A stretch of DNA of 64,000 nt, from the NCBI GenBank assembly GCA_965368975.1, contig CBDUPA010000003.1, positions 160,001 to 224,000 on the forward strand, written 5' to 3'. This stretch comes from an uncultured bacterium. GTDB lineage: Bacteria; Acidobacteriota; Thermoanaerobaculia; Multivoradales; JAHZIX01. Shown here one piece after another: positions 6,774-41,931 of the stretch (position 1 is its first letter; each line of letters opens with the position of its first letter). Below the pieces are notes generated by a model. That model had not been told where the DNA came from, did no database searches, and saw only the letters and a program-made list of their open reading frames with translations. A program made the translations under genes and the position numbers.

Positions 6774-6960
6774 GGAGAACTCCGTGAACAAATGGAACTG
6801 TTTTGGACGATTGAGTCTACCGTACTTCGAGGTGCCTGGCCGTTCGTCTGGGCGGCCTCTCTGCTAAAGTGCTGGAGAGTTGATCACCCGCGTCCTCCTC
6901 TCCCTGGGGGGTGATCTGGGTTTCTGCCTTCATACCTGGAGTACCCATAAGGAGTCTTCC

Positions 6961-13703: not shown

Positions 13704-13740
13704 GCCCGCCATCGAAATCCCCACCTCTGACAGGATGTCG

Positions 13741-16700
13741 CTAGGGGACGACGGTCCAGCCCCCGAGAGTGCCAGACTCGAAGTCGTCGCTCTTGAGCAT
13801 CTGCAGCACTCGGGGAGCGAGTGCGAAGTCGGCTCGGATCGGAGTATCGCCGGTGAGCTGCAGTGAGTAGCCCTGGTCCGGATCGCATTGACCGGCGAAG
13901 GCTGAGCCATTCGGACAATCGACGCCCACGTAGACCTGTTCGGCGTACCCCAGGCTGTTGCGGGATGAGACGAGATAGGTACTCGTATCCAGCGCCTGGT
14001 AGTAGTGACCGTTCGCGTTCGTGGTAGCCGTAGCGACCAGGGTCGAGTCCTGGGCGTTCCAGATGTCGATCTGCACGTTCTCCAAGGCTGCACCGGTGCC
14101 AGCATCCTTGACGTACCCGTAGAGACCCACCTGTGCCGGGTACTCGACCAGCTGTATGTTCGGTGTCGCCAGATGCGGAGCGGTCATGATCTGCTTACCT
14201 TTGGCTGGGTCACATTGCTGGGAGTAGTACGCGCTGACGCCCAACGGGCACAGGATGCCGTCGTACAGCGTCGGGATCGCAGTCGAGAGTGACGGATCCG
14301 AGCTGACGGTGTAGGTACCCTCGAGGCCGGTGAATCGGAAGTAGCCGTCCGCATCCGTATAGGCACTGGTTGGATTGAAGGGGTTCGGTTGACTGTCCCA
14401 GGCTTCGATTCGCCGCGAAGCGACGCCGGAGCCGTCCACCGCGCTGACCAACCGGCCGGTCAGTACGCCGCGCGGCGCGAGCACGAAGTCGATGGCGGTG
14501 ATCTGCTCGTCTGTGGAGACCGTGAAAACGGTGCCAGTGGTGACGTCGCAGCCGGGAGCAGTGCCGTTGAACGGGCAGGTGACACCGTCGAAGAGCTCAC
14601 CATAGTAGGAGTCGCTGGCGGCAGTGATCGTGTACATGCCTGCCGCGCCTCGCAGCGTGTAGGAGTTGTTGAGGTTTGTTGTCGCGTCGACCTGGTTCCC
14701 GTCTTCGTCCCACAAGCGGACCACGGCGCCATACGCGTTGCCGCCGGTCTCGGTGTCCAAGACGGTGCCGGAGAACGTCGTCCAGGTTTCGAGCTGGAAG
14801 TCGAACCTTCCCAGAGTCGTACCGACCTGGGGGTGGACTGGCGTCCCGTCCGAGATGGGACAGCTGCCGTTCGGCGGACAGTGGACGTTCGGGTAGACCT
14901 CGTTGATGTACCTGGAATCGCAGCCAATACACTTCAAGGCCAGGAGAGTCACCGGCTTGGCAGGGAGTTGGTTCAGCTCGTAGTCACCGTTCGCGTCGGT
15001 CACGTCGCCAGCCACGTAGAAGTCGGGAAGGTCCGGGTCGAACGCGTAGACGTACCAGCGATACAACGGATTTCCCGAGGCGTTGGTGACTCGGCCAGAG
15101 AGCCTGCCGCCTTCCTGCAGCTGCAGATCGATACCGGCGCGGTGTGCGCCGAGAGTCAGCTCGATGTCGACGCCATCTTCGAGGTCGCAGATACCGTTGG
15201 GGCCCAAGCACTGCCCATCCGGGTAGATCTCGTAGAGGTAGCCATTGCCTCCGGCCTCTAAGAAGTAACTTCGCGGACCGAGACCTTGGAAGCTGTACTG
15301 ACCCAGCGTGTCGGTGTACGTCGAACTCATGATGGTGTTCGGTGCGACTCGTAGCTTCACGCGTACCCCGGCTATCGGATTGTCTTCGGTATCCCGAATG
15401 GTACCGGAGATACGGCCAATGTTGCGCAGCTGAAAGTCGATGCCGCTGGTCTCCGTGTGGACCTGCACGGCGACGCGCGTGGCACTGGCGAGATCGCAGC
15501 CGCCGAGAAGCTCACACTCGATTCCGTCGTAGTACTGAGACAGAAAACCGTATCTGCTGGCCTTGACCACGTACTCGCCTGCTGCGAGGCCGCGCTGTAG
15601 GTACGTACCTTGGCTGTCGGTGTAGGCGCGGCCGATCCAGTAGCCGTCCGGGTTCTGAATCTCGACCTCGGCGCCCGCGATGGGAAGGCCATCCTGTTCG
15701 ATGACGGTGCCGCTGATCGCTCCCATGGAGGACAGCTGCATATCGATTCCCGTGACCGTCTGCCCGCTGCTGACTGCGATAGCGGCACCATTGGTTACCC
15801 CGCAGATGGTTGGATCACTCGGACAGTCCAACCCGTTGTAGATCTGACCGATGTAGTACGCCAGCTCGGCGCTGACGTAGTACGTGCCCGCCGGAAGTTT
15901 TTCGAACGCAAAGCTGCCATCGGCTGCCGAAAAGATCCGGTGCAAGTAGTCTCCTTGCGCATCCCAAAGCTCGATTCGCGCTCTGTCGAGTCCCTGCCCC
16001 TCGGGATCGGTGACCATGCCTTGGATGCGCGCCGCGGCGACCAGATCGAAATCGATGCCAGACACGGTCCCGGCTGCAGGAGTGTGCACGGTCTCACCGG
16101 CGTCGACGTCGCACGAGTAGACGCAGGGTTGGTCCCGGTACAGTTCGTCCACGTAGTCGCCGGAGCTCGAAGTGCGAAGCTTGAATCCTTCGTACGGGTA
16201 GTATGAATCCTTGGTGGCCGTCACCGTGTAGCTGCCGTCGGAGTTGGTTGTGGTGCTGCGTTGGAAGTAGCCGTCACTATAAAGGTTCACCTGCACATTC
16301 TGCAGCGGAGCTGCATTCGCCTGTGCGGTTACCGTGCCGCTGATCTCCCCCCCCCCGTTCCGTAGTTGAGTTGGTACTGGCCGCCGCTTCCCTCGAAGCT
16401 GCTGATGCGAATCCAGAGACTCTGGTTGGTGGAGAGTTGGGCACCCAGCGCGGACTGCAGCCCGAAAGCATCGTCATTGCAGGAAACCTGGTTGTTGGCG
16501 GTTCCTGGGCATTCGAGATGTACTGACAGGACGGTGTCGAAGTCGGATCCGATCGTGTCAGCTGCGAATCGAAGGTACGAGGGCGAGCTGACGCGGTACC
16601 AGACGTCGCCATCGCCTTGGCCTCCGCAGCCAGTACTACCATCGAGGGTGGCTCCCGCGAGCGAACCGGTGTAGCTACCGAAGGCAATCAGCGGAGCGGT

Positions 16701-17114
16701 CTCGCAGGTATCCGAACCCGGCTGCGCGATGATGGCCTTCTCGGCGATGAGCGGGGGCGACACGAGCGCTCGCATCGCCTGGACTTCGCCCTCCGCGCGC
16801 GTCTCGCTTGTGGCACACATCGTCTCGGCCGCACGCTGTAGGTTTTCGACCAGCGGTAGTAGCGCGTCGAACTTGGGCGCCAGCTCGGAGAGGTCGGTGC
16901 GTAGGAGTAGCCACTTGGCCTCGAAGCTCCGGCTCGCCGCGCGCGCTTCTTCGCAGGTCGAGAGATCTGCGGTGGCGATGCGGTGCAGCACGCGGCGCAG
17001 TTCGTCGTCGAAGTCCTGCAGTTGATCGGCTGGCGTGCTAGCTCGAGCCGTGCTGGTGCAGCAAACGACGAGGGCAAAGAGTGTGAGCCCACGAAGGGCG
17101 ATGCCGAAACGCAT
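13741..17114 (-). pseudogene. Array paralog 1 (short type, ~1,123 aa if repaired), split by a frameshift in a G10 homopolymer
   Basis: ORFs 16329-17114 and 13741-16296 align co-linearly with the N- and C-terminal parts of the neighbouring 1136-aa paralog. The break falls exactly at C10 (16347-16356). Ends SDDFESGTLGGWTVVP. Confidence 0.85.
16347..16356. repeat. C10/G10 homopolymer at the frameshift site
   Basis: Sequence tgatct-CCCCCCCCCC-gttccgta. G8 or G11 would restore the reading frame. Confidence 0.9.
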
Positions 17115-17269
17115 GGGGGGTCTCCAAAAGTTGTTCGGGAAGGTGCTCGGGACGGACTTGCGTCCCGAGCGTGTGCACTCGTCTCTTTAGACAGCCACTG
17201 TGCTTCGTTTTTGCACCATGAAGCGCACTTTGTCTTCTGCAACTTCCATTTTCAGCTGACTGGCGTAGC

Positions 17270-20200
17270 TCAGGGCAGTGCTGGCTCGACCGTCCAGCCA
17301 TCTAGCGTGCCGGACTCGAAGCCGTCGCGCTTGAGCACCTCTCGGGGCGTGAGCGCGAAGTCGGCTCGGATCGGAATGTTGCCGGTGAGGTCCAGCGTAT
17401 AGCCCTGGTTCGGCTGGCACGGGCCGTAGAAGGCGGAGCCGGCGAGGCAGGCGACTCCGACATAGACCTGTTCCACGTGGCCCGGGCTGTTGCGAGTGGA
17501 GACGAAGTACGTCCCGACGCTCAGCGCTTGGTAGTAGTGACCGTTCGCGTCCGTGGTGGCGGTGGCGGCCAGGGTCGAGTCCTGGGCGTTCCAGATGTCG
17601 ACGGCCACACCCGCCAGTCCGTCGCCGGAGGTCTCGTCTGTCACGTAGCCGTAGAGTCCCACCTGTTGCGGATACTCCATCATCAGGATGCTCGGCGCAG
17701 CTTGGTTGGCGCCGATCACGATCGGCTTGCCTTTGGCGGGCTCGCATTCTCTGGAATAGTAGGAACTTACACCGAGTGGGCACAAGATACCGTCGAACAA
17801 GGTCGGGATAGCATTGCTAGGCGGATCGGTGCTCACCGTGAAGGTGCCGACGAGACCAGTGAAGCGGAAGTAGCCGTCGGCATCGGTATAGACCGAGGGA
17901 GGACTGAACGGGCTGGGCTGCAGATCCCATGCTTCGATGAGCCGGGAAGCGACGCCGGAGCCATCGACCGCGCTGACCAACCGTCCCGTGAGTACGCCGC
18001 GCGGCTCGAGCACGAAGTCGATGTCGGTGATCTGCTGATCTGTCGATACATTGAAAACCGTGCCGGTGGTGACGTCGCAAGTAGGGACTCTGCCGTTGAA
18101 TGGACAGGCGATGTCATCGAAAACTTCGCCATGGTAGGAGTCGCTGGCGGCGGTGACCGTGAACTTGCCGCTGGCGCCTCGCAGGGTGAACGGGTTGCCG
18201 GAACTGGTCCTAGCCCAATCTACCTGGTTGCCGTTCTCGTCCCAGAGGCGGATCTCGGTATACCTTGCCTTGCCTCCGGTCTCCGAATCGTAAATGGTAC
18301 CCGTGAAGGTGGTCCACATCCCGATCTGAAAGTCGAAGCTGCCCAGACTCGTTTCGACCTGAGGCGTGACGCGCAGTCCGTCGGTGATGGGGCAGCTGCG
18401 GTCTGGCAGGCAGTGGACGTTCGGGTAGATCTCGTTGATGTACTCGGAGCTACATCCGGAACACCTCGAGGCCTTGAGGTAGACAGGCGTGGGGGGTAGG
18501 TGTTCGAGTACATAGTTTCCGTTTATGTCGGTCAACGCGAAAGCCAGGTTGTAGTCGATGGTGTTCGGGTCAAAGGCATACACCCCCCAACGATGGAGAG
18601 GCGCGCCGGTAGTATCGGTGATCCGGCCGAACAAGCGACCACCTTCCTGCAACTGCAGGTCGATACCGCTGCGATGGGCGCCGAGTGTCATCTCGATACC
18701 GGTCCCCTCTGCGAACTCACAGGTACCGTTGTTGCCCAGGCAGGGCCCGTCGGGATAGATCTCCCAGACATAGCCGTTGCCACCGGCCATCACGTAGTAC
18801 GTACCCTCTCCCAGGCCATCGAATTCGTACTGACCCAGAGCATCAGTGTAGGTCGAGTCCCGAATACTAGGCTCCGAGGTCCGCAGGTAGATGCGTATGT
18901 CGGCTAGCGGGTAGTTGTCGGTATCCCGGATGGAGCCGGAGATGCGACCGGTATTGTTCAGCTGGAAATCGATCCCTGCAGTCTCGGTGTCGGCCTGCAC
19001 CGTTATCCGCGTCGCGCTGGCGAGGTCACAGGACTCATTGCCGAGAAATCCGCATGGGAGGCCGTCGTAGTACTGGGACGAGAAGCCGTTTCTGCCGACC
19101 AGCACTAGATACTCTCCTGCTGCCAGACCTTGTTGTTCGTAGTGACCCTGGCTGTCCGTGGAGACCTGGGAGATCAAGGTGCCATCCGGAGTTTGAGTTT
19201 TGACGCTAGCGCTGGAGATCGGGGTGCCGTCCTGATCGACTACCGTGCCGCTGATCGAGCCCTCTTTACCCAGCTGCATGTCGATGCCGGTGACGCTCTG
19301 GCCGACGGCGACCGGGATGACGGTTCCGCGGGACAGAATACAGTTGGCAGTCAAGCCATGGGCGCAAGCCTGCCCGTCGTAGACTTCATTGACAAAACTA
19401 CTCGCATGAGACCTGACGAAGTACTTGCCCGCGGGGAGCCTGGTGAAGGCGTAGCTGCCATCAGCGGCCGAGAAGACCTGGTGCAGTTGCTCGCCCAGGT
19501 CATCCCACAGTTCGACCTCGATGTTCCGCAGACCCGTTCCCGAAGTGTCGGTGATCGTGCCCGCGATCCGCGCGGCCGGTGACAGTGCGAAGTCGATACC
19601 GGCGGCCGTACCACTTGCCGGTGGGGTTACTTCCTGGCCGAAGCCGGTGTTGCCGAGTTCCCGATCGCAGGGGGAGATGCACGGCTGGTCCTGGTAGACC
19701 TCGTCGATGTAGTCCTCGGAACCCGAGGCGCGAACCTTGAAGCCTTCGTAGTGCAGGCTACTGGTGGGAGCGCTGTAGCTGCCATCGGCGTCGGTGGTGA
19801 CGCTGCCGACAAAGGAGTAGTCGTGGTAGACGCTCACCTGCGCGCCCTCCAAGGGAGCCCCGTCGGCTTCCGCGGTGACCGTGCCGGCGATGCTACCCCC
19901 TATGCCGTAGTTCAGCTGATACTGGCCTCCGATCCCGTCGAAGCTGCTGATCCGGATCCACACACTCTGGTTGGCAGAGACCTCGGACAGCAAGGCCGAC
20001 TGCAGACCAGCGGTGTCGTCGTCGCACGCAATCTGGTTACTGGTCGTACCTGGGCACTCCAGGTGTACCGACACTACGGTGTCGAAGTCGGAGCCGAAGG
20101 TGTCGACCAGGAAGCGGAGGTACGAGGGCGAGTCGACGCGATACCACACGTCGCCGCTGCCCTGGCCGCCGCAGCCAGTGCTGCCGTCGAGCGTGGTTCC

Positions 20201-20668
20201 GAGGAGCGAGCCCGTGTAGCTGCCGAAGGCGATCAGCGGCGCCGTCTCGCAGGTGTCCGAGCCGGGCAGAGCCATGATGGCCTTGTCGACGCGCGGTATG
20301 CCCGGTGGCAACAGCAGTGAACGCATGGTTTGAAGCTCCCCGTCCGCGCGGGATGTACGCACGGAGCAGAGGGTCTCGGCGGCCCGGCGCAAGTTGCCGA
20401 CCAGCGGAGAAAGAGCGTCGAACTTCGACGCCAGCTCGGGTATCTCGGCGCGCAGCAGTCGCAGCTCGGCCTCGAAGGTACCGGCCGTCGCGCGCGCTGC
20501 TTCGCAGCTCGCGAGGTCCGCGGTGGCGATCCGGTGCAACGTCCGGTTCAGGTCGCGATCGAAGTCGCGCAGGCGCTCCTGGGGCGTGCTGCCCAGGGCC
20601 GTCGTGGTGCACAAGACGAGGCAGGCAAGGAGGATCGTCACGGGGCGGACACTGCTGTTGTAGCGCAT
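17270..20668 (-). CDS. Array paralog 2 (short type): secreted protein with helical N-domain, PPC-like domain, 8 carboxypeptidase-regulatory-like modules and DGFESG tail
   Basis: Signal peptide from ATG 20668 (GGAG RBS). Repeated G-x-I/V-x-D...GxY...YDGxxC..C...GIDFxL modules. Ends RDGFESGTLDGWTVEPALP. Confidence 0.85.
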   Translation of the reverse strand: MRYNSSVRPVTILLACLVLCTTTALGSTPQERLRDFDRDLNRTLHRIATADLASCEAARATAGTFEAELRLLRAEIPELASKFDALSPLVGNLRRAAETLCSVRTSRADGELQTMRSLLLPPGIPRVDKAIMALPGSDTCETAPLIAFGSYTGSLLGTTLDGSTGCGGQGSGDVWYRVDSPSYLRFLVDTFGSDFDTVVSVHLECPGTTSNQIACDDDTAGLQSALLSEVSANQSVWIRISSFDGIGGQYQLNYGIGGSIAGTVTAEADGAPLEGAQVSVYHDYSFVGSVTTDADGSYSAPTSSLHYEGFKVRASGSEDYIDEVYQDQPCISPCDRELGNTGFGQEVTPPASGTAAGIDFALSPAARIAGTITDTSGTGLRNIEVELWDDLGEQLHQVFSAADGSYAFTRLPAGKYFVRSHASSFVNEVYDGQACAHGLTANCILSRGTVIPVAVGQSVTGIDMQLGKEGSISGTVVDQDGTPISSASVKTQTPDGTLISQVSTDSQGHYEQQGLAAGEYLVLVGRNGFSSQYYDGLPCGFLGNESCDLASATRITVQADTETAGIDFQLNNTGRISGSIRDTDNYPLADIRIYLRTSEPSIRDSTYTDALGQYEFDGLGEGTYYVMAGGNGYVWEIYPDGPCLGNNGTCEFAEGTGIEMTLGAHRSGIDLQLQEGGRLFGRITDTTGAPLHRWGVYAFDPNTIDYNLAFALTDINGNYVLEHLPPTPVYLKASRCSGCSSEYINEIYPNVHCLPDRSCPITDGLRVTPQVETSLGSFDFQIGMWTTFTGTIYDSETGGKARYTEIRLWDENGNQVDWARTSSGNPFTLRGASGKFTVTAASDSYHGEVFDDIACPFNGRVPTCDVTTGTVFNVSTDQQITDIDFVLEPRGVLTGRLVSAVDGSGVASRLIEAWDLQPSPFSPPSVYTDADGYFRFTGLVGTFTVSTDPPSNAIPTLFDGILCPLGVSSYYSRECEPAKGKPIVIGANQAAPSILMMEYPQQVGLYGYVTDETSGDGLAGVAVDIWNAQDSTLAATATTDANGHYYQALSVGTYFVSTRNSPGHVEQVYVGVACLAGSAFYGPCQPNQGYTLDLTGNIPIRADFALTPREVLKRDGFESGTLDGWTVEPALP

Positions 20669-20736
20669 GTAGATCTCCAAACGTTCATCGGATTGCGTCG
20701 AGAGAGGAAGTCGACTCGACGTGAGAATTCATTTTG

Positions 20737-23700
20737 TCAATTCTCCAGGACGCTGCGCAGGGCGAAGTCGGCACGCTGGCCGGCCTGGAAGTCGAGCAGC
20801 AAGGTAGTGCCCGTGCCGGGATCGCAGGCGCTGTTGCCGTCGATGATGGGGCACTCCTGGTTCGGGTAGACCTGATCGACGAAGCCGAGGTCGTTCGAGG
20901 TCACGACACGGTACTGGCCGGTGGGGAGGTCCAGGACGTACGTACCGTCCTGCTCGCTGAAGCGACTGTCGACCAGGGTGCCGTCCAGGTCGTAGATCTC
21001 GATCCGTACATCCGCCAGGGGTGCGCCGCTGGCGGCGTTGCGGACGCTGCCGAATAGGCGTAGCGGCCGGTACGGCAAATGGAGATCGATACGCCGGCTG
21101 ATTCCTGCGGAAATGGCGAGAGGCGTGCCCTTTGTCGGATCGCAGGGTCTGCTGCAGGTGAGTCCGTCGTACAGGACGTTGCTGTAACCGTAAGAGCGCC
21201 CCGGCACGTCGTTCAGCGAGGAACTGAGGAAGTAAGTGCCATGCGCCAGTCCGGCAAAGACGTAGCGGCCGGCTCGGTTGGTGAAGGTGAACTGGTTGGC
21301 GCCGTCTAGCTTGCGCAGCTTCACGGACCTGAATGCCAAGGGGGCGCCAGTGACGCCGTCGAGCAGGAAGCCGTGGACTGTGCCCTGGGGACGCAGCAGG
21401 AAGTCGATGCCAGCGGTCGTCTGGCCGGCACGGGCACGCACGGCCCGGCCCTGGGTCGGGTCACAGGTCAGCGGACGGAAGGGACCGTTGGCGCCCGGAC
21501 AGGGCAGCAGGTCGTAGGTCTGAGCCTCGAGGGCTTCGTCCACGGCGGTCAAGTAGTAGAGGCCCGGTGGCAAGGCCGGCGTGGCGAAGGCGCCGTCCAC
21601 CGCCACGTCGACGGTGCCGCGCACGGACCGGTCGGCGTTCTGGTAACGCACCTCGGCGCTCGGCACCGGGTACTCACTGCTAGTCAGGTTGCGGTCCGTC
21701 ACCACGCGTCCCGCCAGCACGCCGCCGCCGCGCAACCGGAAGTCGATGCCGGTGAGGTGTGCGTCTTCCGCCACCAGCAGTGGGGTGCCGCCCTGGAACT
21801 GGTAGAGGAAGATGTCGGTTCGCGGCCGCACGTCCTCGACGCCGTCGTAGAACTGGGTGACATAGGGCGCTTCGCCTGGCACGGAGCGGGCCATGAGCAG
21901 GTAGAAGCCGCGTTCGAGAGCGGTGAGGGCATAGCTACCATCGCCCTGGCTGAACGCCGTGGCGTGAACCCTGCCGTAGTAGTCGTGCAGCAGTAGCTCG
22001 ATGTTCGGCAGCGGTTGACCGGCCAGGTCGGTAACGGTGCCGCGCACGCTGGCGTTGGTCTTGGCGCTGCCTGCGTTGGCGCGCGAGGGAATCGAAGGCG
22101 AGGGTTGTCGGCTTGCAGGCGTGGCGTCCAGGCGCGTACCGCGTTTGGGAAGGCGGAAATCCACCAGCGGGAAGTTGGCGTCGCCCACTTGCACCGCGCT
22201 GCCGGAGGCCGGATCGCAGTTGCCGAGCCAGGCCGAGCCGTCCGGACACGCCACGCCGTTGAAGACCTGGTCGAGGTGACCGATCTCGTTGTGGGTCGAG
22301 ACGAAGTAGCCGCCGGGCGGCAGCTCGAACTCGTACCGGCCACTGCTGTCGGTCTCGACCTGACCGACGTGGTCGCCGCTGCTGGCGTCCCAGACATCAA
22401 TGCGGATGCCGCTCAGGGGCACGTTACGGACCGGTTCCTCGACGCGACCGCGCAAGCCGGTGACCAGCGGTGTCAAGACGAAATCGATGTCCGGAGTCAG
22501 CTCGCGGTCGCGCACGGTGACCAGGGTGGCGCCCGCCGGTGCGCCGTTGCAGGGAGCCTCTTCGAGGCCGTCTGGGCAGTCGATGCCGGGGTAGAAGCGG
22601 GGCACGTACTGGCCTGCGCGGTGGCGTTCCCCAGCTCCAACATAATAGTCGCCAGGCGGCAGGGCATCGGTAGTGTAGAGGCCGGTCTGGAAGCTGCTCC
22701 TGTCGGTCGCGATCAGCTCACCGCTGGGATCGAAGATAGCGATCCTGGGCCCGATCGGCTGGCCGGTGAAGACGTTGACGGTGCGACCGGAAATGGCGCC
22801 GAAGGGGTCGAGGTGCAGGGCGATGCCGGAGATCACGTCGCCCAGCTCGATCTCGATCACGGTGCCGGTCGGTGCCTCGGTGCACTCACCGTTGCACTCC
22901 CCGCCGCCGTAGATCTGGCCGTTGTGTCCGCGGTAGGAAGCGGAGAGGCGGTAGGAGCCAGGCAGAATGCCGAACAGCTCGAAGGTGCCCTCGAACGCCT
23001 GCCGTGGCACGTCGACACGCTCGCCGGTGGTGGCATCCCAGAGCTGCAGGTCCGGGAAGGTGAGCTCACCGCCGGTGACCGAGCTGAAGACGCGCGGGCG
23101 CAGCACGCCGAGGGTTTCGAGTTCGAAGTCGAAGCCAGTCTGGGGAGCGACGGCACCCTCGAAGACCACCGGCGTGCCCTGCTCCAGGGGAGGGCAATCC
23201 GGCAGGCATGGCAGACCGTCGAAGAGTTCACTGCGCCAAGCTTCGGTACTCACGATCAACCGGTACTCGCCGGCCTTGATGCCGCGGATCTCGTAGTCGC
23301 CCGCACTGTCAGGGAAACCCAGTCCCACGACCTGGTCGCTGGCCGACCACAGCTGAACCTGGCCGCGGCTGATCGCCCCGCCCTGGCTGTCGGTAACGCG
23401 CCCTTGGAGTGTGCCGAGCGCGCGAGCCTCGAGATCGATACCCGTGACGCCGGCACTGCCGACGTTGATGGCAGTCGCGCCGTCGGTGGAGCACGAAGTG
23501 TTCAGAGAGTCGCAGGGCGGTGCGCCCAGGAGCTGAGGATGGATATCCCTGTTGAAGAACAGGTAGTACTCAGCGGCTGGCACTGACAGGGTGTATCTGC
23601 CTTGTGTGTCCGTGCTGGTGGAGTTGGTGATCTGAGGGAAGGGGTCGTAGACGCGATACGGCGAGGCCGTCACTACGACGCTTGCCAGCGGTGCGCCGGT

Positions 23701-25890: not shown

Positions 25891-25969
25891 AGAGAACCTC
25901 CAAGAGATTGGACAGTAGGACGTCTAGGGCCGTTCGCTTGCGATGACTGTTCTTGCGCCGACCCCTAGA

Positions 25970-25999
25970 GTAGGCGCAAGAGATCCGGGGGCGGGATCA
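25970..25999 (-). promoter_or_regulatory. Conserved upstream motif, copy A (TGATCCCG-N10-TCTTGCGCCTAC)
   Basis: Both blocks and their spacing recur exactly at 31509-31538, upstream of the next paralog. Confidence 0.55.
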
Positions 26000-26172
26000 G
26001 ATGTCCCTGGAGGAGGTCAAAGCCGAGCAACGGGAGTCGATCTTCGTGAGTAGCTGCAATGTTGCCGTGCGAGCGGCGAACTAGACTCCCACTGGTGGCA
26101 GCCTCTGTTTGTTGGGGACGGCAGAGCCGTAGGTCCTGTACGGGCAACTGGGCTCCAGGTTGCTTACGGTGG

Positions 26173-31365: not shown

Positions 31366-31508
31366 CGGGAGATTCTCCGGTTCGATGGGGGTTCCTGCTT
31401 GCTCCGATTCTCCTTGAGATCGGGATGACCTCACGGGACCTCCGAAAGGCGGTTCTATGTGTGTCCAAATCACTTTCTCATGCAGGTGCCGCTAGTAGGC
31501 TTCATGAG

Positions 31509-31538
31509 GTAGGCGCAAGACTCGCGGGAACGGGATCA
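31509..31538 (-). promoter_or_regulatory. Conserved upstream motif, copy B (TGATCCCG-N10-TCTTGCGCCTAC)
   Basis: Matches 25970-25999 within otherwise diverged intergenic DNA. Confidence 0.55.
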
Positions 31539-31574
31539 CCGGCAAGTCCGCGCCAGGAGGTGCTGAGTCCGCGG

Positions 31575-34500: not shown

Positions 34501-36662
34501 AAAAGAGGTACTCGGGTCGCCGCGACGGAAACGTCCATCAGCGGAGTGCCAGCGACGTCGGTGACCGTGCCACGGATCATCGGGTGGGGGACGAGTTGGA
34601 AGTCGATGCCGGTCAGCGGTGCCGCCGGTGCCACCAGCGGGACCGCGTGCAGCGGATCGCAGCGGTCGTCGTCGATGAATTCGGCGTACCCGGGGCAGGG
34701 TTGTCCCCCGTACACCTGGTCTTCGTGACTGCGGCCGCTGTTGGTGTAGAGGTAGTAGGTGCGTCCGGCCTCGGTGGGTAGGCGATACGAGCCGTCCGTA
34801 CCGGTGGTGGAGGTCAAGGTACGGTCGGCTTCGGGCTCATACGCCTTGATCTGGCGGTCGGCTAGCGGGTTGCCGCCGCTTTCGGTCAAGCGGCCTTGGA
34901 GGCTCGAGGGATTGACGGGGCGGGGTAGCAGTTCGAAGTCGATCAGCGCGCTCGGATAGTGGCGTCCGGTGGGTTGCAGGTCGACCACCGCGGCGTCGAT
35001 CAGCTCACACTCGCTACCCGGTAGGCAGTTGTGGCTGTCGTAGTACTGGAAGAAGTGACTCTGTGCCGTGGCGTAGAGGAAGAAACCGTAGGCCGGCAGG
35101 TTGCGCAGCAAGTACTCGCCGTTGGCGTCGGTCTCGGTGCGCCGATCCATGAACGGCTGCTGCCGGAGGTCGGCTTGCCGGGCACCGACGGAGGCGCCGG
35201 TGAGCGGCTGGCCATCGGCGTCGGTGACGCGGCCACGGATCTCGACCCAGCTCTCAAGCACGATGTCTACGCCGCTGGTCTCGTGCCCCTGCTCGACGCG
35301 TACCGGCTGACCGGTCAGCGGGTCGCAGGGCCGGGGACAAGCGATGTCGCCATAGAGGAAATCCTTGCCGTCGGCCGGCAGCAAGCGCACGAAGTACTCA
35401 CCCGCAGGAAGGCCATCGAGCTGGTAGTCGCCTTCGAGGCGACTCTTGAGGCGGCCGAACTCGCGGCCGTCTTCGAAGTAGATGCGGATGTCGATTCCAC
35501 CGGCAGGCCGGCCGTCGGCGTAGTGGATCTGGCCGCTCAGGCTACCGCCGCGCGCCAGCGACAGGTCGAGGCCAGAGAGCACTTCGCCGGCCTGCAAGGG
35601 CAGCAGCGCACCGAGCTGCTCGCGGCCGCACGAGGCTTGCAGCCCGGAGGGGCGGGGGAGGTCGTCGTACAGCTCGTCGACATGGCCGGCGGTCTGCCAA
35701 GTGTGCAGATAGGCGGGGCCGGAATCGAGCTGCCTGCCGGGCAGCGCACCGACCCGGTACATGCCGGTGGCATCGCTACCGCCGCTGGCGAGATTGAAGC
35801 CGGTGTCGCGGCTGCACAGCTGAACCCTTGTTTGCAGCGGTGCGCCGTCGCTGTCGCGACTCACCCTGCCCTCGACCAGGGCGCGCTCACCGACGCGCAA
35901 CTGGTAGTTGCCGGTGCTCGTCGGGTCGAAGCCGGCCAGGCGAATGAAGACTTCTTGACCGGCGTCGAGGATGTAGTACGCGGCCGCTTGCAGGCCGTAG
36001 TCGTCGTCGCTGCAGGCGAGCTCGTTGGTAGTGAGACCGGGACAGCCGGAGTGGAGGGAGACCACGGTGTCGAAGCTCGATCCGGAGCTGTCGAAGCCGA
36101 GCGTGCCGCGGGTGTCCGCTCGGTAGCGAAACCAGACGTCGCGCGCGCCGGGTTGACCGCATGTGCCGTCGCCGTCCAAGCCACTCTCGTCCAAACTACC
36201 CGTCACAACCTGCCCGAGCACCAGCGGCTGAGCGGCGAGACAGGTGTCGTTGGCGGGCGCGGCTTTGGATGTCGCCCAGGACGCGATCGGCGCCTGGGCG
36301 CGCAGCTCGGCCAGGCTCGCGGTCTCGCCGCGCTCGTGCATCTCGAGGGCCAGCCGCAGGTTGTGCTGTAGAGCACGCAAGGCATCCAGCTTGCGCGCCG
36401 TGATCGGATCGTCCGTGCGAGTCACGCGCGTTTCTAGCGCTTCGAGTTGCCGCGTTAGCGCCTGGTGCCGGCTCTGCCAAGTACTGCGCAGTGACTTGTC
36501 CGGCGCAGCAGTGTCACGAACCTCGACCAGGAACTGGTGTAACTGCTGATCGAGCTGCTGCAGATCCTGGTGGGGCGTGGCTTGGGCCGCTACGAGCAGA
36601 GGCGCGAGCCCGACGAGCAGGCTACAGAGCAGACGGGCTGGATGGCGAACGGATGAAATCAC
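31575..36662 (-). CDS. Array paralog 5 (long type, 1695 aa)
   Basis: GTG start with GGAGG RBS, signal peptide, PANDTCLAA, 13 modules. Ends QRADFALRSVLAP. Confidence 0.85.
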   Translation of the reverse strand: MISSVRHPARLLCSLLVGLAPLLVAAQATPHQDLQQLDQQLHQFLVEVRDTAAPDKSLRSTWQSRHQALTRQLEALETRVTRTDDPITARKLDALRALQHNLRLALEMHERGETASLAELRAQAPIASWATSKAAPANDTCLAAQPLVLGQVVTGSLDESGLDGDGTCGQPGARDVWFRYRADTRGTLGFDSSGSSFDTVVSLHSGCPGLTTNELACSDDDYGLQAAAYYILDAGQEVFIRLAGFDPTSTGNYQLRVGERALVEGRVSRDSDGAPLQTRVQLCSRDTGFNLASGGSDATGMYRVGALPGRQLDSGPAYLHTWQTAGHVDELYDDLPRPSGLQASCGREQLGALLPLQAGEVLSGLDLSLARGGSLSGQIHYADGRPAGGIDIRIYFEDGREFGRLKSRLEGDYQLDGLPAGEYFVRLLPADGKDFLYGDIACPRPCDPLTGQPVRVEQGHETSGVDIVLESWVEIRGRVTDADGQPLTGASVGARQADLRQQPFMDRRTETDANGEYLLRNLPAYGFFLYATAQSHFFQYYDSHNCLPGSECELIDAAVVDLQPTGRHYPSALIDFELLPRPVNPSSLQGRLTESGGNPLADRQIKAYEPEADRTLTSTTGTDGSYRLPTEAGRTYYLYTNSGRSHEDQVYGGQPCPGYAEFIDDDRCDPLHAVPLVAPAAPLTGIDFQLVPHPMIRGTVTDVAGTPLMDVSVAATRVPLFDAFYPATNVTSTATDGTYTLPVPPGDHYLSFSNGIHPHIPGAAECNPGSFCPTDGATVFTVTTADLTVDLRARALGSISGRVTDTQGHGPDLLDSVVLWSVREGEVERIVSPQDDGAFHFSHLLAGEYKLATRFSTRRDELYDGLLCQPDCPDWQQGTSLVLDGSVTPLTGIDIELEALGKLRGRVWDAVSGRTVSQPDLQVWDADSGLRVSQLTISSDFQGNFEVEGLPPGTYYLSASDTGYHGQFYGGADCVEACSDETPAGTQLEVTLEQEIDGLDFHLAPYGAIAGRVTEALTGQPVSVSVRVYSPDGRVVERTSTSPADGTYTTDPLPDGEYFVGAGQTSASETGEIPQFHPGVACPDGLEGGTCAGIPPQAAAVTVSDSTTTAGIDFTLSPRTTGLNGRVFQTAGGPLPGTIGIDVWDARTGVLTAQGETDASARFSFELPPGGYFVSTHNELGLIDEVFDNVGCPAGSARQEGCDPALGTPVQVGSARFPSITLTLARGRGSHNDGTALPSALPLPTHQEPSNPTSSKATATISGTVTDITGQPLKGIQVVQRGFSGHEVTSTLTETDGSYHFTAVNSGIYLFEARSLTGETLFVRQVFDGADCAWLCNQGYDFDYTRHGGTPVPVSEGAQIDGIDFRLRPGGILTGRVLSDAASTASEYPLAGITVRFENADLSVYGFLETASDGTFSTPILPPGSYFLTAYGGNFEAQNYSRIPCPRDADVPSRPFSCTLTNGRPARVRPNQTTSGVDFFLRPAGVVTGFVTDAVSGEPLPFVPLQMVRERGTVTYQVVSNRAGRYVFEGLFDGDYVLATQLENTLFSPSDHSNVLFQGLTCQEPCEPTKGTTISVSAGVRQRIDLQLPRRPLHLFGTLRSAVSGAPLGNVRIEVYDLAGTLVDWTFSEDDGEYRFDLPPGQYHVVTSNDLSFVDQAYPDQECADVCDPTAGTPVALDFETGQRADFALRSVLAP

Positions 36663-36725
36663 GCAGACCTCCGCAAGGACATGGTGGACGTGTCGAGGTT
36701 GTTTCTCGCAGCAAGGGCTACGAGT

Positions 36726-39700
36726 CTACGGTTCAAGGACGCTGCGCAGTTCGAAGTCGGCGCGCTGGCCTGTCTCGAAGTCGAGAGTCAGCGGCGTGCC
36801 CGCCGTCGGTTCACAGCTGCCGGCACATTCCTGCCCCGGATACGCCTGGTCGAGGAAACCGAGGATGTTACGCGTCGAAACGCGGTACTGGCCAGGTGGC
36901 ACGTCGAGCCGGTAGCTGCCGTCCGGCAGCGTGGTGGTCGTGCCGGCGAACGCACCTGCGATGTCATGAACGTTGACTTCGATACCGGCCAGCGGAGCGC
37001 CGCTGGCGGCGTTGCGCACCGAGCCGAAGAGGCGCAGCGGCAGGTGAGGTAGGTGCAGGTCGATGCGGACGTCGCTCTGAACTTCGATCGGAATGGGACT
37101 GCCTTTGTCGAACTTGCAGAGCTCACGGCAGACGAGTCCGGCATGCAGGACGTTGGCATAGTCGCTCGCCAGCAGGTTGCGGTCGACGTCACTGCCCAGG
37201 TAGTAGGTACCGTTGGTCAGCCCGCTGAAGGAGAAGTGTCCTCCGCGACCACTGCGCACATGAATCGGGGCGTCGCCCGGTCGTTCCAGGCGCAGGAACT
37301 GCCAGGGCAGAGGTTGCCCCGTTTCGAGGTCGAAAATCTGCCCGTGGATACGTCCATTGGGACGGAGAGGGAAATCGACGGACCGCGTTGTCATCCCAGG
37401 GCGAACCCGCACCTGGGTGCCCGTGAAGACATTGCAGCTCAGACGGTTGGGGACGTCGGGGTCCACCGGACAGGGCTGGTTGTCGAAGAGCTGTGTTTCG
37501 TGGCCCTTGTTGTAGGTGGTCAGCTTGTACAAGCCTGGTGGAAGTGCCGGTGTCTCGTAGTGGCCCTGTGCATCGACGGCAAGTGCGCGCGACCAGGACC
37601 CATCGGCGGAATACAGGGTGACACTGGCGCTGCCGATGGAGTTGCCGGTGACAGCGTCGAAGACGCGGCCTGCGATGCGTCCACCCAGGAGGAGGCGGAA
37701 GTCGATGCCACCTATGCTGGCATCCGCGGTCACCGGCACCTGAGTGCCCCGGCGCTGATCAAAGCCGATGGAGCCGGTGCACCAGGGTTCGCAGTCGACA
37801 CCGTCGAAGCTCTGTTCGACATAAGGCGTACTGCCGGCAGGGGAGCGGGCGTCGAAGACGTAGATGCCGGCGTCGAGGCCCGAGAAGCGATATCGCCCGT
37901 CGGCGTCTGTGACGGTAGTGTCGATGAGGGAGCCCCTCTCATCGCCGCGCTCGACTTCGATGCCGGCCAGCGGTTGTCCCGTGCGGCTGCGCACCGTGCC
38001 TTCGACGCTGGCGCCCTGCTGCCTCGGTGAGCCGGGCCGGGCGCCGTCAGCGGTTGGAGTTCGAGAGGTTCGAGGTTGACCGAGAATGAAGTTCACGGAC
38101 GTGAAGTCGCGGCCCAGGGCTGCAACCGGTGTGCCCAGACGGGGTGCGCAGCGACCCTGCAAGGCCGAGCCATCCGGACACGCGACCCCCCGGTGCACCT
38201 CGTCGACGAGACCGAGCTGGTTGTGGGTCGTGACGAAGTAGCTGCTCGGCGGCAGGCTCAGGCTGAAGGAGCCGCCGGGCTGGGTGAAAGCGTGCCCGGC
38301 GTATGCTCCCGTATAAGCGTCCCACGCGTCGATGCGAACACCGACCAAAGACTGGCCTCCCGCAGCCTCGACGGAGCCCCAGATGCCGCTGGCGCGCGGA
38401 GGCAGCACGAAGTCGATGCCGGTCGTGGTCTCCCGAGCCTGGACGGTCACGGGAGTCGCTACGGAGGCAGGGTTCTCGCAGGGAGGTTGCCCGATGCCAT
38501 TGGGACAGCCGACGCCGTCATAGAACGTGGGCTCGTAGGCGCTGCTCGTGCTACCGGCGCTCACGAAGTAGGTGCCGGTCGGCAGCGCTCGCGAACGATA
38601 CTCGCCGTTGCTGAAGGCCGATGCGTTCACCGTATCCACTATCTGCCCGCTGGCGGCAAAGATACGGATCGTCGTCGAGATCCCTCGATCGGTCAGGGCT
38701 TCGCTCACCCGGCCGGTAATGGAACTGTTCGGGGTCAAGTCGAGATCCAGGCCTGTCAGGGTATCCCCGGTCGCGATTGCGAGCCGGTCGCCGCGCAGGA
38801 TCGCGGGTACGGAGCAGGAGTCGACTCCCTCGCAGCGATCGCCCCCATGAACTTGCCCGAAGAAGCCGTTGGCGGTGGCGGTCAAGAAGTAGGTTCCCGG
38901 CTCGACTCCCTCCAGCAGGAAGCGACCATCGTTGCCAGTGAACGCCGAGAAGTTGGTGAGGCTGGCCGTGGAATCCCAGAGGTTGACGGCGGCGCGGTCG
39001 ACCGGCTCACCGGACGCTGCGTCGAGGACCCGGCCGCTGAGGGCCGGCTGTTGCTGCAGGACGAACTCGACCCCGTCTTGCACGACGGCTTCGCCGCTGA
39101 AGGAGAAGATCGTCCCCCCGGTACCGGGACAGTTCCCCTCGCAGGCGATGCCATCGTAGACCTGGTCTTGCCAGTTGGGAGTCTCCGTGAAGACCTGGTA
39201 CTCATGATCGCCTGCCAGCAGGTGGCTGAAGCTGAAGGCGCCGGAGCCGTTGAGGAGAGCCCGCGCGAGCCGGCGCTGCTCGGACACGGACCACAGCCAG
39301 ACCTCACCTTGCGTGACGAGCCGCCCGGCCGCGTCCAGCACGCGTCCGCGCACCGCCCCGCGTGCCAGCGCCCGGATGTCGATGTTGTCGATGTCCGACG
39401 TCTCGACGTGCAACTGTTGGGCCCCGGCGGTCGAACAGGGCTCGCCGTCCTCGTCTGGGCACGGGGCGGCGCCATAGACGTGCAGATGAATCGGGCCGAA
39501 GAAGAGCACGAAGTGATCGCCGGGCGGCACGGGCAGCACATAGGCACCCAGCTCGTCGGTGGCGGCGCTGCCATTCGGGAAGGTGAGGCAGAAGTCGAGA
39601 TCCGTCTCATTGCATGCCACGACACTGACGTTCTCCATCGGCCGACCTGCGATATCGGTGACCCTGCCCTGGATTCGCGGCAACGACCGGAGCTGGAAGT

Positions 39701-41819
39701 CGAGGCTGGCGACCGATCCGGTTCCTGGAGAGACGGGAACGGCGCGCAAGGGATCACATCCATCGCGAGTGGGCCGCCCAGCGTTGTCATAGTGCGGGCA
39801 CACCTCGCCCCCGAGGACCTGGTTCTCATGTGTCGCCGGCGCCTTGGTGTACAGGTGGTACGTCCGGTTCGGTGCGACTGTCATCCGGAACGAACCATCG
39901 AGGCCGGTGAAGCTCGTGTATCCCTGGTCGTTCACCGGGTCGTAAGCGCGCACTTCGACACTATGGATCGGGGCGCCGGAGTTACGGTCAGAGATGGTGC
40001 CAGTCAGGGTCGGCTGGCTACCGGCAGCCAGGCCCAACTCGAAGTCGATCACCACGTCGTCGGCCTGGTGCAGGTCGACGACCCGGGCCTGCGTGAAGTC
40101 GCAGTTCGAGCCGCAAGCGAGGTCCTCGTAGATCTCCGTGACGTAGCGGGTCGCGCTCGCTTCGACGAAGTAGGCCACGGGGTCGAGGTCATGGAAGGCG
40201 TAGCTGCCGTCCTCGGCGGAACGGACCGCCCTGGGCGAGAGCAGGAGATCGCCGCGGTAAGCGCGCACGATTGCATCCTCGAGCGGGGTTCCGTCCTCGC
40301 GGGTCACGGTGCCGCGCAGGGTCGGGCCGCCGGGTGCCTGGAAATCGATGCCGGAGGTGGTCTGTCCCAGAGAGACCGCTACCGGGGTACCGTCCGTGGG
40401 CGAGCAGGAGAGGCCGCAGGGGATGGCATCGTAGATCACGCTGTCGATGGGATTGCGCGGGAAGGCCTGGAAGAAGAGGTCGCCGGCGGGAAGCCCGCCG
40501 AGGGTGTAGTAGCCGTGAACGTTGGAGACGGTCCAGCCTAGAGGCCGCCCGCTTGCATCGTAGGCGTGGATCCGGGCCGTTACGCCCCGGCCATCGACTT
40601 GGTGCACCCTGCCGGAGACGCTGCCGCCCCTAGAAAGCGCCATCTCGATGCCCTCGACGTGGTCTCCGCCACGTAATTCGATCTTGGTGCCTTCCGGCTC
40701 GTTGCACGCGATGTACGCGTCGTCGGGGCGTACGATGTCGTCGTAGACCTCGCCGACATAGCCGAGCCTCCGGCTATCGTAGGTGTGGACGTAGTAGCTG
40801 GCGGGGCCGATCAGATCTCTGAAAGGCCTGCCGAACCGGAACGTGCCGTCGTCGGCGGTCGTGGCCGTCTGCACGAGGAAACCACCCTCGCTCGAGCACA
40901 GCAAGGTCCCTACCCGTAGTGGCTGGCCACCGGGATCGCTGACGACGCGGCCGCTGATCGTCGGTGGGGCGCTGACGTGCAGCCGGTAGACGCCGTCGCC
41001 GACGTCGGGAGTGAAGCCCGAGAGCCGGACCCAGACCTCCTGACCGGGCCTCAGCCTGGTCATGGCAGCCCCCTGCAGGCCGTAGCTGTCGTCACTGCAC
41101 ACCAGTTCGTTGCTGGCCAGACCCGGGCAGCTGGTGTGTATCGAGACCGTCGTGTCGAAGCTGGATCCGCTGCTGTCGAAGACGACGTAGTCATCTTCGA
41201 GGGCGGTGTAGCGGAACCAGGCGTCCGGGCTTTCGGGGGACCCCGTGCACGAACTCTGACCGTCGGCGCTGGCCTCGGCGAGTGTGCCCTGCACCACGGT
41301 GCCGAGGGACAGCAGTAGAGCGTCTTTGCAGGTGTCATTGGCCGGGGCCTGGGCCTTGTCGGGCTGAGCCGAAAGGCTCGTGGGGAGTGCTACGTCCGCC
41401 TGGGCGGTCGAACGCAGGAAGCGCAGGGACTCGACATCACCGGCGGTGCTCAGGCGGACGGCACGTTGGAGGTTCTCCCGCAGCAGGCGGACGCTATCCA
41501 GCTTGCGCTGCCAGGTGCGGTCGGTGCCCCGTCGTTGCAGGCCGGCGGTCGCTAGTGCCTCGAGGCGTGCGTCGAAGTCCCGCAAAGCAGCCTGCCACGC
41601 CTCGAGGCGCTGCTCCGTCGCCGTACCGTCTGTAGTCGCGTTGTTTCGAACCTCGGTCAGCTGCTGTTGGATCTCCGCGTCGAAGCGTTGCAACTGCTCG
41701 TAGAGATTCGACTCGTCCTGCTGAGGTTCGGCCGCGCTCAGTGTCGGCGAAATCAGTGTTGGCGAAACGAGAGTGGCGGTGAGCAGCACGACAAGAAGCA
41801 GAAAGCGGCGGTAGGGCAT
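36726..41819 (-). CDS. Array paralog 6 (long type, ~1697 aa; first in transcription order)
   Basis: Probable ATG 41819 (GGAG RBS), signal peptide, PANDTCKDA, 13 modules. Ends QRADFELRSVLEP. Confidence 0.85.
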   Translation of the reverse strand: MPYRRFLLLVVLLTATLVSPTLISPTLSAAEPQQDESNLYEQLQRFDAEIQQQLTEVRNNATTDGTATEQRLEAWQAALRDFDARLEALATAGLQRRGTDRTWQRKLDSVRLLRENLQRAVRLSTAGDVESLRFLRSTAQADVALPTSLSAQPDKAQAPANDTCKDALLLSLGTVVQGTLAEASADGQSSCTGSPESPDAWFRYTALEDDYVVFDSSGSSFDTTVSIHTSCPGLASNELVCSDDSYGLQGAAMTRLRPGQEVWVRLSGFTPDVGDGVYRLHVSAPPTISGRVVSDPGGQPLRVGTLLCSSEGGFLVQTATTADDGTFRFGRPFRDLIGPASYYVHTYDSRRLGYVGEVYDDIVRPDDAYIACNEPEGTKIELRGGDHVEGIEMALSRGGSVSGRVHQVDGRGVTARIHAYDASGRPLGWTVSNVHGYYTLGGLPAGDLFFQAFPRNPIDSVIYDAIPCGLSCSPTDGTPVAVSLGQTTSGIDFQAPGGPTLRGTVTREDGTPLEDAIVRAYRGDLLLSPRAVRSAEDGSYAFHDLDPVAYFVEASATRYVTEIYEDLACGSNCDFTQARVVDLHQADDVVIDFELGLAAGSQPTLTGTISDRNSGAPIHSVEVRAYDPVNDQGYTSFTGLDGSFRMTVAPNRTYHLYTKAPATHENQVLGGEVCPHYDNAGRPTRDGCDPLRAVPVSPGTGSVASLDFQLRSLPRIQGRVTDIAGRPMENVSVVACNETDLDFCLTFPNGSAATDELGAYVLPVPPGDHFVLFFGPIHLHVYGAAPCPDEDGEPCSTAGAQQLHVETSDIDNIDIRALARGAVRGRVLDAAGRLVTQGEVWLWSVSEQRRLARALLNGSGAFSFSHLLAGDHEYQVFTETPNWQDQVYDGIACEGNCPGTGGTIFSFSGEAVVQDGVEFVLQQQPALSGRVLDAASGEPVDRAAVNLWDSTASLTNFSAFTGNDGRFLLEGVEPGTYFLTATANGFFGQVHGGDRCEGVDSCSVPAILRGDRLAIATGDTLTGLDLDLTPNSSITGRVSEALTDRGISTTIRIFAASGQIVDTVNASAFSNGEYRSRALPTGTYFVSAGSTSSAYEPTFYDGVGCPNGIGQPPCENPASVATPVTVQARETTTGIDFVLPPRASGIWGSVEAAGGQSLVGVRIDAWDAYTGAYAGHAFTQPGGSFSLSLPPSSYFVTTHNQLGLVDEVHRGVACPDGSALQGRCAPRLGTPVAALGRDFTSVNFILGQPRTSRTPTADGARPGSPRQQGASVEGTVRSRTGQPLAGIEVERGDERGSLIDTTVTDADGRYRFSGLDAGIYVFDARSPAGSTPYVEQSFDGVDCEPWCTGSIGFDQRRGTQVPVTADASIGGIDFRLLLGGRIAGRVFDAVTGNSIGSASVTLYSADGSWSRALAVDAQGHYETPALPPGLYKLTTYNKGHETQLFDNQPCPVDPDVPNRLSCNVFTGTQVRVRPGMTTRSVDFPLRPNGRIHGQIFDLETGQPLPWQFLRLERPGDAPIHVRSGRGGHFSFSGLTNGTYYLGSDVDRNLLASDYANVLHAGLVCRELCKFDKGSPIPIEVQSDVRIDLHLPHLPLRLFGSVRNAASGAPLAGIEVNVHDIAGAFAGTTTTLPDGSYRLDVPPGQYRVSTRNILGFLDQAYPGQECAGSCEPTAGTPLTLDFETGQRADFELRSVLEP

Positions 41820-41931
41820 GTGGCGCAACTCCGAGTGCAAGTATGAAGGGGCGTGGTTCCGTGGTTTCTTCTCGGCTCGAGATCTCGTTTATGGGACGGT
41901 CGTCCTCACGGAAATTCTCAATAAGAGGTTC

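Follow-up and report, generated by a model that had tools for sequence, protein, structure and literature searches.

Six tandem genes for stalked, exported proteins in a Thermoanaerobaculia genome: candidate surface fibres and a C-terminal tail common to many unrelated exported proteins

The MSCRAMM/Sdr adhesins and the Gram-positive pilins are the closest described counterparts of the proteins reported here. They possess an N-terminal binding region which is followed by a stalk of tandem CnaB/prealbumin-like sandwiches. Acidobacteriota are abundant; to our knowledge almost nothing is known about how they build their surface or secrete their enzymes. Here, we analyze a window, i.e., a stretch of 64,000 nucleotides from an uncultured acidobacterium of the class Thermoanaerobaculia (assembly GCA_965368975.1, contig CBDUPA010000003.1, positions 160,001 to 224,000). 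Between positions 13741 and 41840 it carries an array of six minus-strand genes, g1 through g6, all co-oriented and with one common protein layout according to the list of open reading frames and their translations. In form, the array is best seen as a Gram-negative analogue of the Gram-positive stalked adhesins. With modest confidence we consider it a lineage-specific expansion of exported, non-enzymatic rod proteins which are likely to be extracellular or cell-surface binding fibres.

The layout is a signal peptide, a three-helix bundle, a β-sandwich head with four cysteines and a row of CarboxypepD_reg modules of about 105 aa. An original prediction made from the letters alone had proposed this common architecture for six co-oriented paralogs, two of about 1.1 kaa (thousand amino acids) with 8 modules and four of about 1.7 kaa with 13 modules. 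The architecture holds in all paralogs, and an iterated profile returns 8+8+13+13+13+13 modules. Six co-oriented genes are indeed present and five are intact; g1, however, is split by a frameshift and is not one open frame. As signal peptides we accepted a hydrophobic segment ending in a small-x-small site, judged by eye from the translations.

The stalks were delineated by a profile which was seeded with one g2 module and iterated on the six proteins until it converged. It finds 68 modules, exactly the number which a manual count had approximated. The modules abut. The sole real gap is a linker of 20-35 aa, rich in Pro, Ser and Thr, between modules 9 and 10 of each long paralog. Exactly two Cys are present in 64 of the 68 modules, four in three modules and none in one (g3 module 10). 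In 60 of the 64 two-Cys modules the Cys are 4-14 residues apart; the spacing is 61-64 residues in module 1 of each of the four long paralogs. Two profile columns are fixed, C74 (63/68 modules) and C82 (61/68). The even Cys counts taken together with the export signals suggest that the modules contain disulfide bonds, which would mostly close a short loop after export.

Pfam PF13620 (CarboxypepD_reg) has a cut-off of 32.3 bits and reaches 208-321 bits in all six proteins, with 6-10 separately scored stretches in each; the E values of the individual proteins range from 2e-62 to 8e-98. An AlphaFold2 (AF2) model of the last two g2 modules, 7 and 8, has a predicted local distance difference test score (pLDDT) of 85-90. 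Foldseek relates it to B. anthracis TIE, the SdrD B domains and the CnaB domains of Gram-positive pilins as well as to the transthyretin-like domain of carboxypeptidase D (5aq0, target template-modelling (TM) score 0.84). A Sulfolobus SlaA/SlaB S-layer chain is also among the fold matches. Pfam and Foldseek agree with the earlier view of the modules as carboxypeptidase-regulatory-like (transthyretin/CnaB-like) stalk domains.

The likeness to the MSCRAMM/Sdr adhesins and the pilins comprises the order of binding region and stalk and the fold of the modules, for which these proteins are the best matches; Pfam SdrD_B and SpaA also score, in places where they overlap CarboxypepD_reg. As to differences, the host is a Gram-negative acidobacterium, the proteins have no LPXTG, SD repeat or DEv-IgG A domain, and the head is PPC-like. 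The stabilizer appears to be a short Cys loop and not isopeptide bonds or Ca sites. The family models of the Sdr type, NF012181 and NF000535, score at most 34 bits against cut-offs of 1700-2500. The C-termini read ...RSVLEN/AP or ...GWTV..P and have no LPXTG, transmembrane segment or SD run.

The head comprises about 230-290 residues after the signal peptide in which Pfam reports no hit above threshold. The predicted motif (N/S)DxC ... DVW(F/Y)R ... FDT(V/T)(V/L)S is present, together with four invariant Cys. When the six heads are aligned with three outside relatives, the four Cys and the motifs DVW(F/Y)R and FDTV(V/L)S persist. The AF2 model of the g3 head (pLDDT 74) is of moderate confidence and has a three-helix bundle (residues 42-126) and a β-sandwich (156-281). 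Foldseek places it closest to the collagen-binding domains of ColG/ColH and the PPC domain of a B. anthracis collagenase (E 7e-6, target TM score 0.76). Among the solved collagen-binding and PPC domains it superposes on 4hpk, 1nqd, 3jqw and 5sv5, the E values lying between 7e-6 and 1e-4 and the target TM scores between 0.69 and 0.78. The Atlas neighbours of the head are PPC/GBD clusters, and more distant relatives carry PF23759 or PF04151 on peptidases, on cargo of the type IX secretion system (T9SS) and on other exported proteins. As modelled, the head is a PPC/collagen-binding-domain-like β-sandwich, probably with two disulfides. It shares the sandwich with the described domains of this kind (PF04151; GBD_T9SS_assoc, PF23759; ColG s3b; ColH s3), yet it is N-terminal, follows a three-helix bundle, has four invariant Cys and sits on a stalk instead of a peptidase. 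The predicted fold of binding-domain type fits the reading as adhesin or fibre.

Head, modules, linker and tail together account for all residues, which makes a hidden catalytic domain unlikely. Further to this point, Pfam and NCBIfam report no catalytic domain, transmembrane anchor, RTX repeat or autotransporter barrel in the paralogs, and dedicated secretion genes are absent from the 30 flanking open reading frames scanned, both as originally stated. Elsewhere the genome has two secretins and one exosortase-like frame. The combination of an exosortase/PEP-CTERM-type motif, a hydrophobic helix and a basic end is on none of the six C-termini. TIGR04183, the model for the T9SS type A C-terminal domain, exceeds its cut-off of 23 bits in g3 through g6 (28-49 bits). 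The best stretches are partial and inside stalk modules, i.e., residues 456-501 in g4, 1016-1060 in g5, 1037-1094 in g6 and 1627-1666 of 1717 in g3. We read these scores as generic sandwich likeness. As a marker of the T9SS machinery, SprA_N (PF14349) had no match in the host genome G000 nor in any control genome, in a search without a positive control.

How did the array come about? Each of the 68 modules finds its best cross-gene match at its own position in a paralog, whereas the best module-to-module identity within a gene has a median of 31%. This argues for old module arrays and for a multiplication of the genes by whole-gene duplication. The identities are 62-67% between g1 and g2, 45-50% among g3, g4 and g5, 38-41% between g6 and g3-g5, and 27-29% between short and long paralogs. 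The best-conserved part among the long paralogs is the last module (56-67%). In the short type the last module has its closest counterparts in modules 9 and 13 of the long type. This suggests an origin of the long type from a 9-module unit to which the linker attaches a 4-module unit.

The host belongs to the Thermoanaerobaculia; metagenome-assembled genomes (MAGs) of this class carry ribosomal protein S1 genes with up to 82% identity to the one in the window. It is a soil/sediment acidobacterium with a genome of 7.13 Mb (99% complete, 65% G+C); G+C in the window is 62-70%. The window encodes LpxB and an MsbA-like ABC transporter, which indicates a diderm envelope. In three genomes of the same family (G003, G005 and G001) the TolB/amidohydrolase ortholog directly adjoins the ParA-like and MR_MLE genes; of these genes, the search of G002 recovered TolB and MR_MLE only. 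Because the flanking genes are adjacent in G003, G005 and G001, the array and the GGDEF regulator beside it constitute an insertion of about 29 kb. No flanking repeats of at least 10 nt were seen at this island. The regulator may link the array to cyclic di-GMP (c-di-GMP).

The head is confined to these six genes in its own genome. Among 200 further genomes of the class a full-length head occurs in one copy each in G185, G049 and G210. A set of 40 relatives has near-full heads in G025 and G035, the Acidobacteriota MAG L016 has one head, and the metagenome proteins P0013, P0016-P0018 and P0044 share the build. The tandem expansion to six genes was not found in the other genomes searched. As to the modules, a query with the last five of g3 against 1.84 billion cluster representatives matches 4677 of them at E<=0.001, of which 787 reach E<=1e-30; many are 2000-7000 aa long. 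Proteins of this family reach 7021 aa and up to 40 matched stretches. Of the best 150 relatives we examined 148, since P0001 and P0003 are g5 and g6 of the window. By regular expression 28 of them have the head motif, 42 the C-terminal tail described below and 19 both. The fragment P0233 (591 aa, 47% identical) ends like the long paralogs; thus the long type is not unique to this genome.

The literature listings searched showed no paper on the module family. The family is widespread and unstudied, and the array is a variation within a known family, not a new system. To speak of an undescribed system, as the original prediction did, is too strong: Cys-loop CarboxypepD_reg repeat proteins are a very large family, and the head with its stalk, in cases also with the tail, recurs as single genes. 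The generic giant carboxypeptidase regulatory-like repeat proteins of Acidobacteriota and other phyla have modules of the same family. Unlike these, the array combines six genes in tandem with stalks of two fixed lengths, whose modules are orthologous by position, and with a conserved head of helical and PPC-like parts. The locus offers a clean case, in a Gram-negative bacterium, of a putative fibre family built from head and stalk.

We envisage the following course of events. Old whole-gene duplications inside the inserted island would have generated the six paralogs. Each rod protein would be exported by the Sec route and would then pass the outer membrane. The head would bind a polymer or a surface, and the stalk of 8 or 13 modules would serve as a stiff spacer. 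The proteins would act as adhesin or matrix fibril, the six diverged paralogs representing a repertoire of heads and stalk lengths. The short paralogs would be addressed by the C-terminal tail which they have in common with many unrelated exported enzymes of the class; the four long paralogs are without this tail and would be placed some other way.

Several observations weigh against such binding fibres. No cell anchor was found on the long paralogs, which could therefore be free matrix or periplasmic proteins. The Pfam PPC/GBD models remain below threshold on the heads of the window; the sole hit is PF23759 in g3 with 16.8 bits against 27 (E 0.0087). On peptidases, PPC-like domains also occur in a passive capacity, as accessory or pro-domains. 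What ties the array to the diguanylate cyclase is that the two are neighbours in one genome, and the regulator and g1 are convergent. Around the single-copy homologs of G049 and L016 the neighbouring genes are not conserved, i.e., the context affords no functional clue. Finally, the frameshift in g1 could reflect an assembly error or a dead gene.

This frameshift is located in a run of ten G (G10) at the junction of head and stalk. The sequence of g2 at the matching spot is GGGGGTAG, and g1 is two bases longer there. Runs of at least ten identical bases are rare; seven exist in the 7.13-Mb genome, one of them at a contig end, and the G10 of g1 is among them. The frameshifted g1 could be phase-variable by slipped-strand switching, a dead gene or an assembly error. 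Two other long G runs were observed, a G9 at G000:C10:236169-236177 and a G11 at G000:C20:107206-107216. They are placed precisely between or next to open frames of very large size (1139 and 344 aa; 1109 aa) and may mark further giant genes which are interrupted or controlled by homopolymers.

The tail of the two short paralogs is the feature most worth a follow-up and more novel than the array. Three genes of the window, g1, g2 and a neighbouring metallopeptidase, end in about 20 aa of the form [IL]F-x-D-G-F-E-S-G-[DNT]-x-x-x-W-[ST]-x3-P-stop. Outside relatives end in ...IF(A/V/R)DGFESG(D/N)xxxWS..... A six-frame scan of the genome uncovered seven further open frames with the same ending, e.g., C1:657942-659537, C14:154754-157198 and C38:9956-10006. 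By eye, all seven have signal-like N-termini. The proteins are otherwise unrelated: one CAP protein, one M23 peptidase, two propeller proteins, one P-domain/DUF11 protein and two without a Pfam family. A tail profile (A3) was built from 13 rows; g1 and g2 match it with E 4e-10, and the matches end at the stop or at most three residues from it. At E<=1 the profile has 25 matches in the genome, 20 within 9 residues of the stop, 3 internal and 2 spurious. The terminal matches include a frame of 5256 codons and the M12B metallopeptidase of the window.

The distribution is patchy with high multiplicity. Among 301 Acidobacteriota genomes a tail match at E<=1e-5 is found in 15 and in none of the other 286. 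G008, G014 and G049 have at least 27 matches each, and the five genomes of the window's own family have at least 117 (G003), 62, 25, 21 and 3. In 26 loci of other genomes with a match to the pattern the motif is at most 8 residues from the stop in 17. A word-based search of 5.8 billion proteins with a 40-aa tail of the consensus type places the motif at most 12 residues from the end in 111 of the 120 matches listed. The terminal tails among these listed matches mostly read EIFADGFESGDTSAWSSSVP-stop and are attached to many Pfam families. Tail-bearing enzymes belong to GH9 and to the BNR sialidase-like, M12, M14, S8, trypsin-like and GDSL-type families. Compared with relatives, the tails of the present genome are more degenerate.

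What is conserved is the peptide. In the 19 tails of G049 that were examined, Ser is encoded by both of its codon families, Pro by four codons and the stop by all three, and the sequence downstream of these genes is not conserved. This indicates selection on the peptide and rejects a DNA repeat. An obligate first strand of one downstream domain was also considered and found no support: in nine internal cases the motif is followed variously by GH114, LamG, FGE-sulfatase or nothing known. The tail is acidic and aromatic, without a transmembrane helix or a basic end, and is predicted to be disordered in cis (AF2 model of the g2 end). It matches no model in Pfam or NCBIfam. A weak match to the start of NTTRR-F1 (E 0.034) is a lead only. 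The literature searched yielded no description of the tail; the papers listed for GFESG were unrelated, and none came up that mentions Thermoanaerobaculia together with a sorting signal.

In several respects the tail resembles C-terminal sorting signals such as the T9SS C-terminal domain, PEP-CTERM and LPXTG: it is an exact-end element on many unrelated exported proteins, patchy and of high multiplicity. It differs from them because it has only about 20 aa and neither a transmembrane helix, a basic end nor a domain of about 80 aa. In P0175 it directly follows a choice-of-anchor Q domain; judging from NCBIfam naming, choice-of-anchor domains presumably precede sorting signals. These characteristics suggest that the tail is a sorting or docking label, one apparently undescribed. 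More specifically, and with somewhat less than even confidence, we propose the consensus ...[IL]F-A-D-G-F-E-S-G-D-T-S-A-W-S-x-x-[VI]-P-stop as an address label for an undescribed Thermoanaerobaculia system of sorting or surface docking which would handle tens to more than 100 exported proteins per genome. Then g1 and g2 would be its cargo with stalk and head, and the long paralogs tail-less 9 + 4 module fusions held at the surface otherwise; together they would make up a variable, possibly phase-switched (G10) set of binding fibres under c-di-GMP control.

A short C-terminal tail found on much of what an entire class exports is of general interest. Should the tail act in sorting or docking, identification of its reader would reveal a new way in which diderm bacteria place proteins. 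The tail would then also improve the prediction of secreted enzymes in soil and sediment metagenomes and provide a 20-residue tag for studying or directing surface display in these organisms.

The search for a reader in the neighbourhood of 20 G000 tail genes yielded Ser/Thr kinases and TPR proteins as the sole recurrent neighbours, both abundant families. After adding 20 regions of G049 no family was common beside tail genes, save one family of about 300 aa which was seen three times. The head as reader of the tail was rejected, as the tail-rich genomes G008, G013, G019 and G003 have no head match. A second common C-terminal signal was not found on the long paralogs; in this genome the ...RSVL.. 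ends are present on g3 through g6 only.

Three side observations pertain to the tail. In some Acidobacteriota outside the class (L201 G429:C6, L203 G232:C9, L216 G429:C6) the motif is internal and is followed by a Ser/Thr-rich linker and a conserved β-rich region of about 280 aa. This region is without a Pfam family and may be an ancestral partner or parent domain of the tail. In about 6 of the 19 G049 tail genes examined (L239-L256) a G-rich repeat of the type GGGATCTGGGATCTGGGGG directly follows the stop; it may be an element resembling repetitive extragenic palindromes (REP-like) or a terminator. Lastly, two relatives with head and stalk, L188 (G035:C189, 4048-6597) and P0013, have no tail and instead share a C-terminal region of about 80 aa (...AGG.V.L..G..L..GG.L.I...), i.e., the family swaps its C-terminal endings.

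Which alternatives are there to binding fibres? The proteins might be purely structural parts of envelope or matrix, S-layer-like, a sheath or a biofilm scaffold, with a head for self-assembly and not for ligand binding. The long rigid stalk, the diguanylate cyclase in the same island, the fold match to SlaA/SlaB and weak local matches to the Kustd1514-type S-layer glycoprotein would be in line with such a role. Yet NF052345, the model of this glycoprotein, scores 34-62 bits against 1400 in local matches only, which reflects nothing beyond common β-sandwich repeats. Six paralogs at 27-67% identity are an odd fit for a lattice protein. The relatives elsewhere are single genes and the nearest genomes are without them, which speaks against a core part of the envelope. 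We consider a purely structural role unlikely.

It is rather improbable that the proteins remain periplasmic or sit on the inner side of the outer membrane, for instance as partners of TonB-dependent transporters headed by CarboxypepD_reg. The same Pfam domain does head the Oar/SusC-type receptors, and the six proteins have Sec signals but no recognized signal for translocation across the outer membrane. The matches to the receptor model TIGR04056, however, are weak (17-34 bits against 368) and confined to the N-terminal domain, profile positions 2-50. Plug and barrel are absent (no TonB_dep_Rec or Plug in Pfam), and the window contains no TonB-dependent receptor gene. Besides, a stalk of 8-13 modules would exceed the width of the periplasm: from general domain sizes, 8-13 tandem sandwiches of about 105 aa each would extend over tens of nanometres.

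We give even less credence to a cellulosome-like display in which the long untagged paralogs are scaffolds that capture tail-bearing enzymes by their modules or heads, with the tail as a mini-dockerin. The tail is on many hydrolase families and free in the cis model, and three tail genes are positioned beside four untagged 13-module proteins. On the other hand, tail-rich genomes are devoid of the long type and most of them of the head: at E<=1e-10 the head is not matched in G008, G013 or G019, and G003 with its 117 or more tails has no head match either. A universal reader of the tail must consequently be something else. Least probable of all is a decaying remnant of a horizontally acquired island with little present function; the frameshift in g1, the absence of the island at the syntenic site of related genomes and the degenerate tails would agree with it, but five uninterrupted frames of 1136-1766 codons in a genome of 65% G+C stand against it, as do Cys pairs and module borders kept across paralogs 27-67% identical, which indicates purifying selection.

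The coordinates of all features are compiled in Table 1. The probable start of g4 is Met37 at 31365, resulting in 1730 aa; the database protein P0222 is g4 in this form.

Table 1. Features of the array and of its surroundings, in positions of the window.
Feature	Position	Strand	Remarks
Reprolysin-like (M12B) metallopeptidase	6880..8322	+	tail variant ...EDSFESGNVSQWTLFP-stop at about 8248-8319; 5 kb from array
Response regulator with GGDEF domain (diguanylate cyclase)	12774..13703	+	GGDEF and RxxD motifs intact; convergent with g1
g1, C-terminal piece	13741..16296	-	851 aa; 8 modules and tail; 62% identity to g2
C-terminal tail of g1	13744..13803	-	...DDFESGTLGGWTVVP-stop
G10 homopolymer (C10 on + strand)	16347..16356	-	head/stalk junction of g1; frame shifted +2 nt relative to g2
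g1, N-terminal piece	16329..17114	-	261 aa; signal peptide, helices, head; 67% identity to g2
g2	17270..20680	-	short paralog, 1136 aa; head about 19904-20680; 8 modules; C-terminal tail
C-terminal tail of g2	17273..17332	-	...RDGFESGTLDGWTVEPALP-stop
g3	20737..25890	-	long paralog, 1717 aa; head about 25051-25890; 13 modules
Pro/Ser/Thr-rich linker of g3	22063..22149	-	modules 9/10
g4	26173..31473	-	long paralog, 1766 aa from GTG; 13 modules
Equivalent linker of g4	27499-27603	-
g5	31575..36662	-	long paralog, 1695 aa; head about 35892-36662; 13 modules
Equivalent linker of g5	32898-32990	-
g6	36726..41840	-	long paralog, 1704 aa; first ATG 41819; head about 40977-41840; 13 modules
Equivalent linker of g6	38022-38081	-

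Two minor observations concern the DNA between the genes. Between the convergent regulator and g1, overlapping the stop of the GGDEF regulator, a perfect hairpin (GGCGGGC-TGA-GCCCGCC) is present at 13690-13715. It looks like a bidirectional terminator but was missed by the consensus scan. When the array was scanned for promoters and terminators, fewer sites were returned than from shuffled sequence, and no minus-strand intergenic terminator. A 12-mer, TCTTGCGCCTAC, is common to the regions upstream of g3 (25891-26172) and g4 (31366-31574) and could be a promoter or operator element of both genes. Upstream of g3, TCTTGCGCCTAC makes an inverted repeat with GGCGCAAGA, 13 nt apart.

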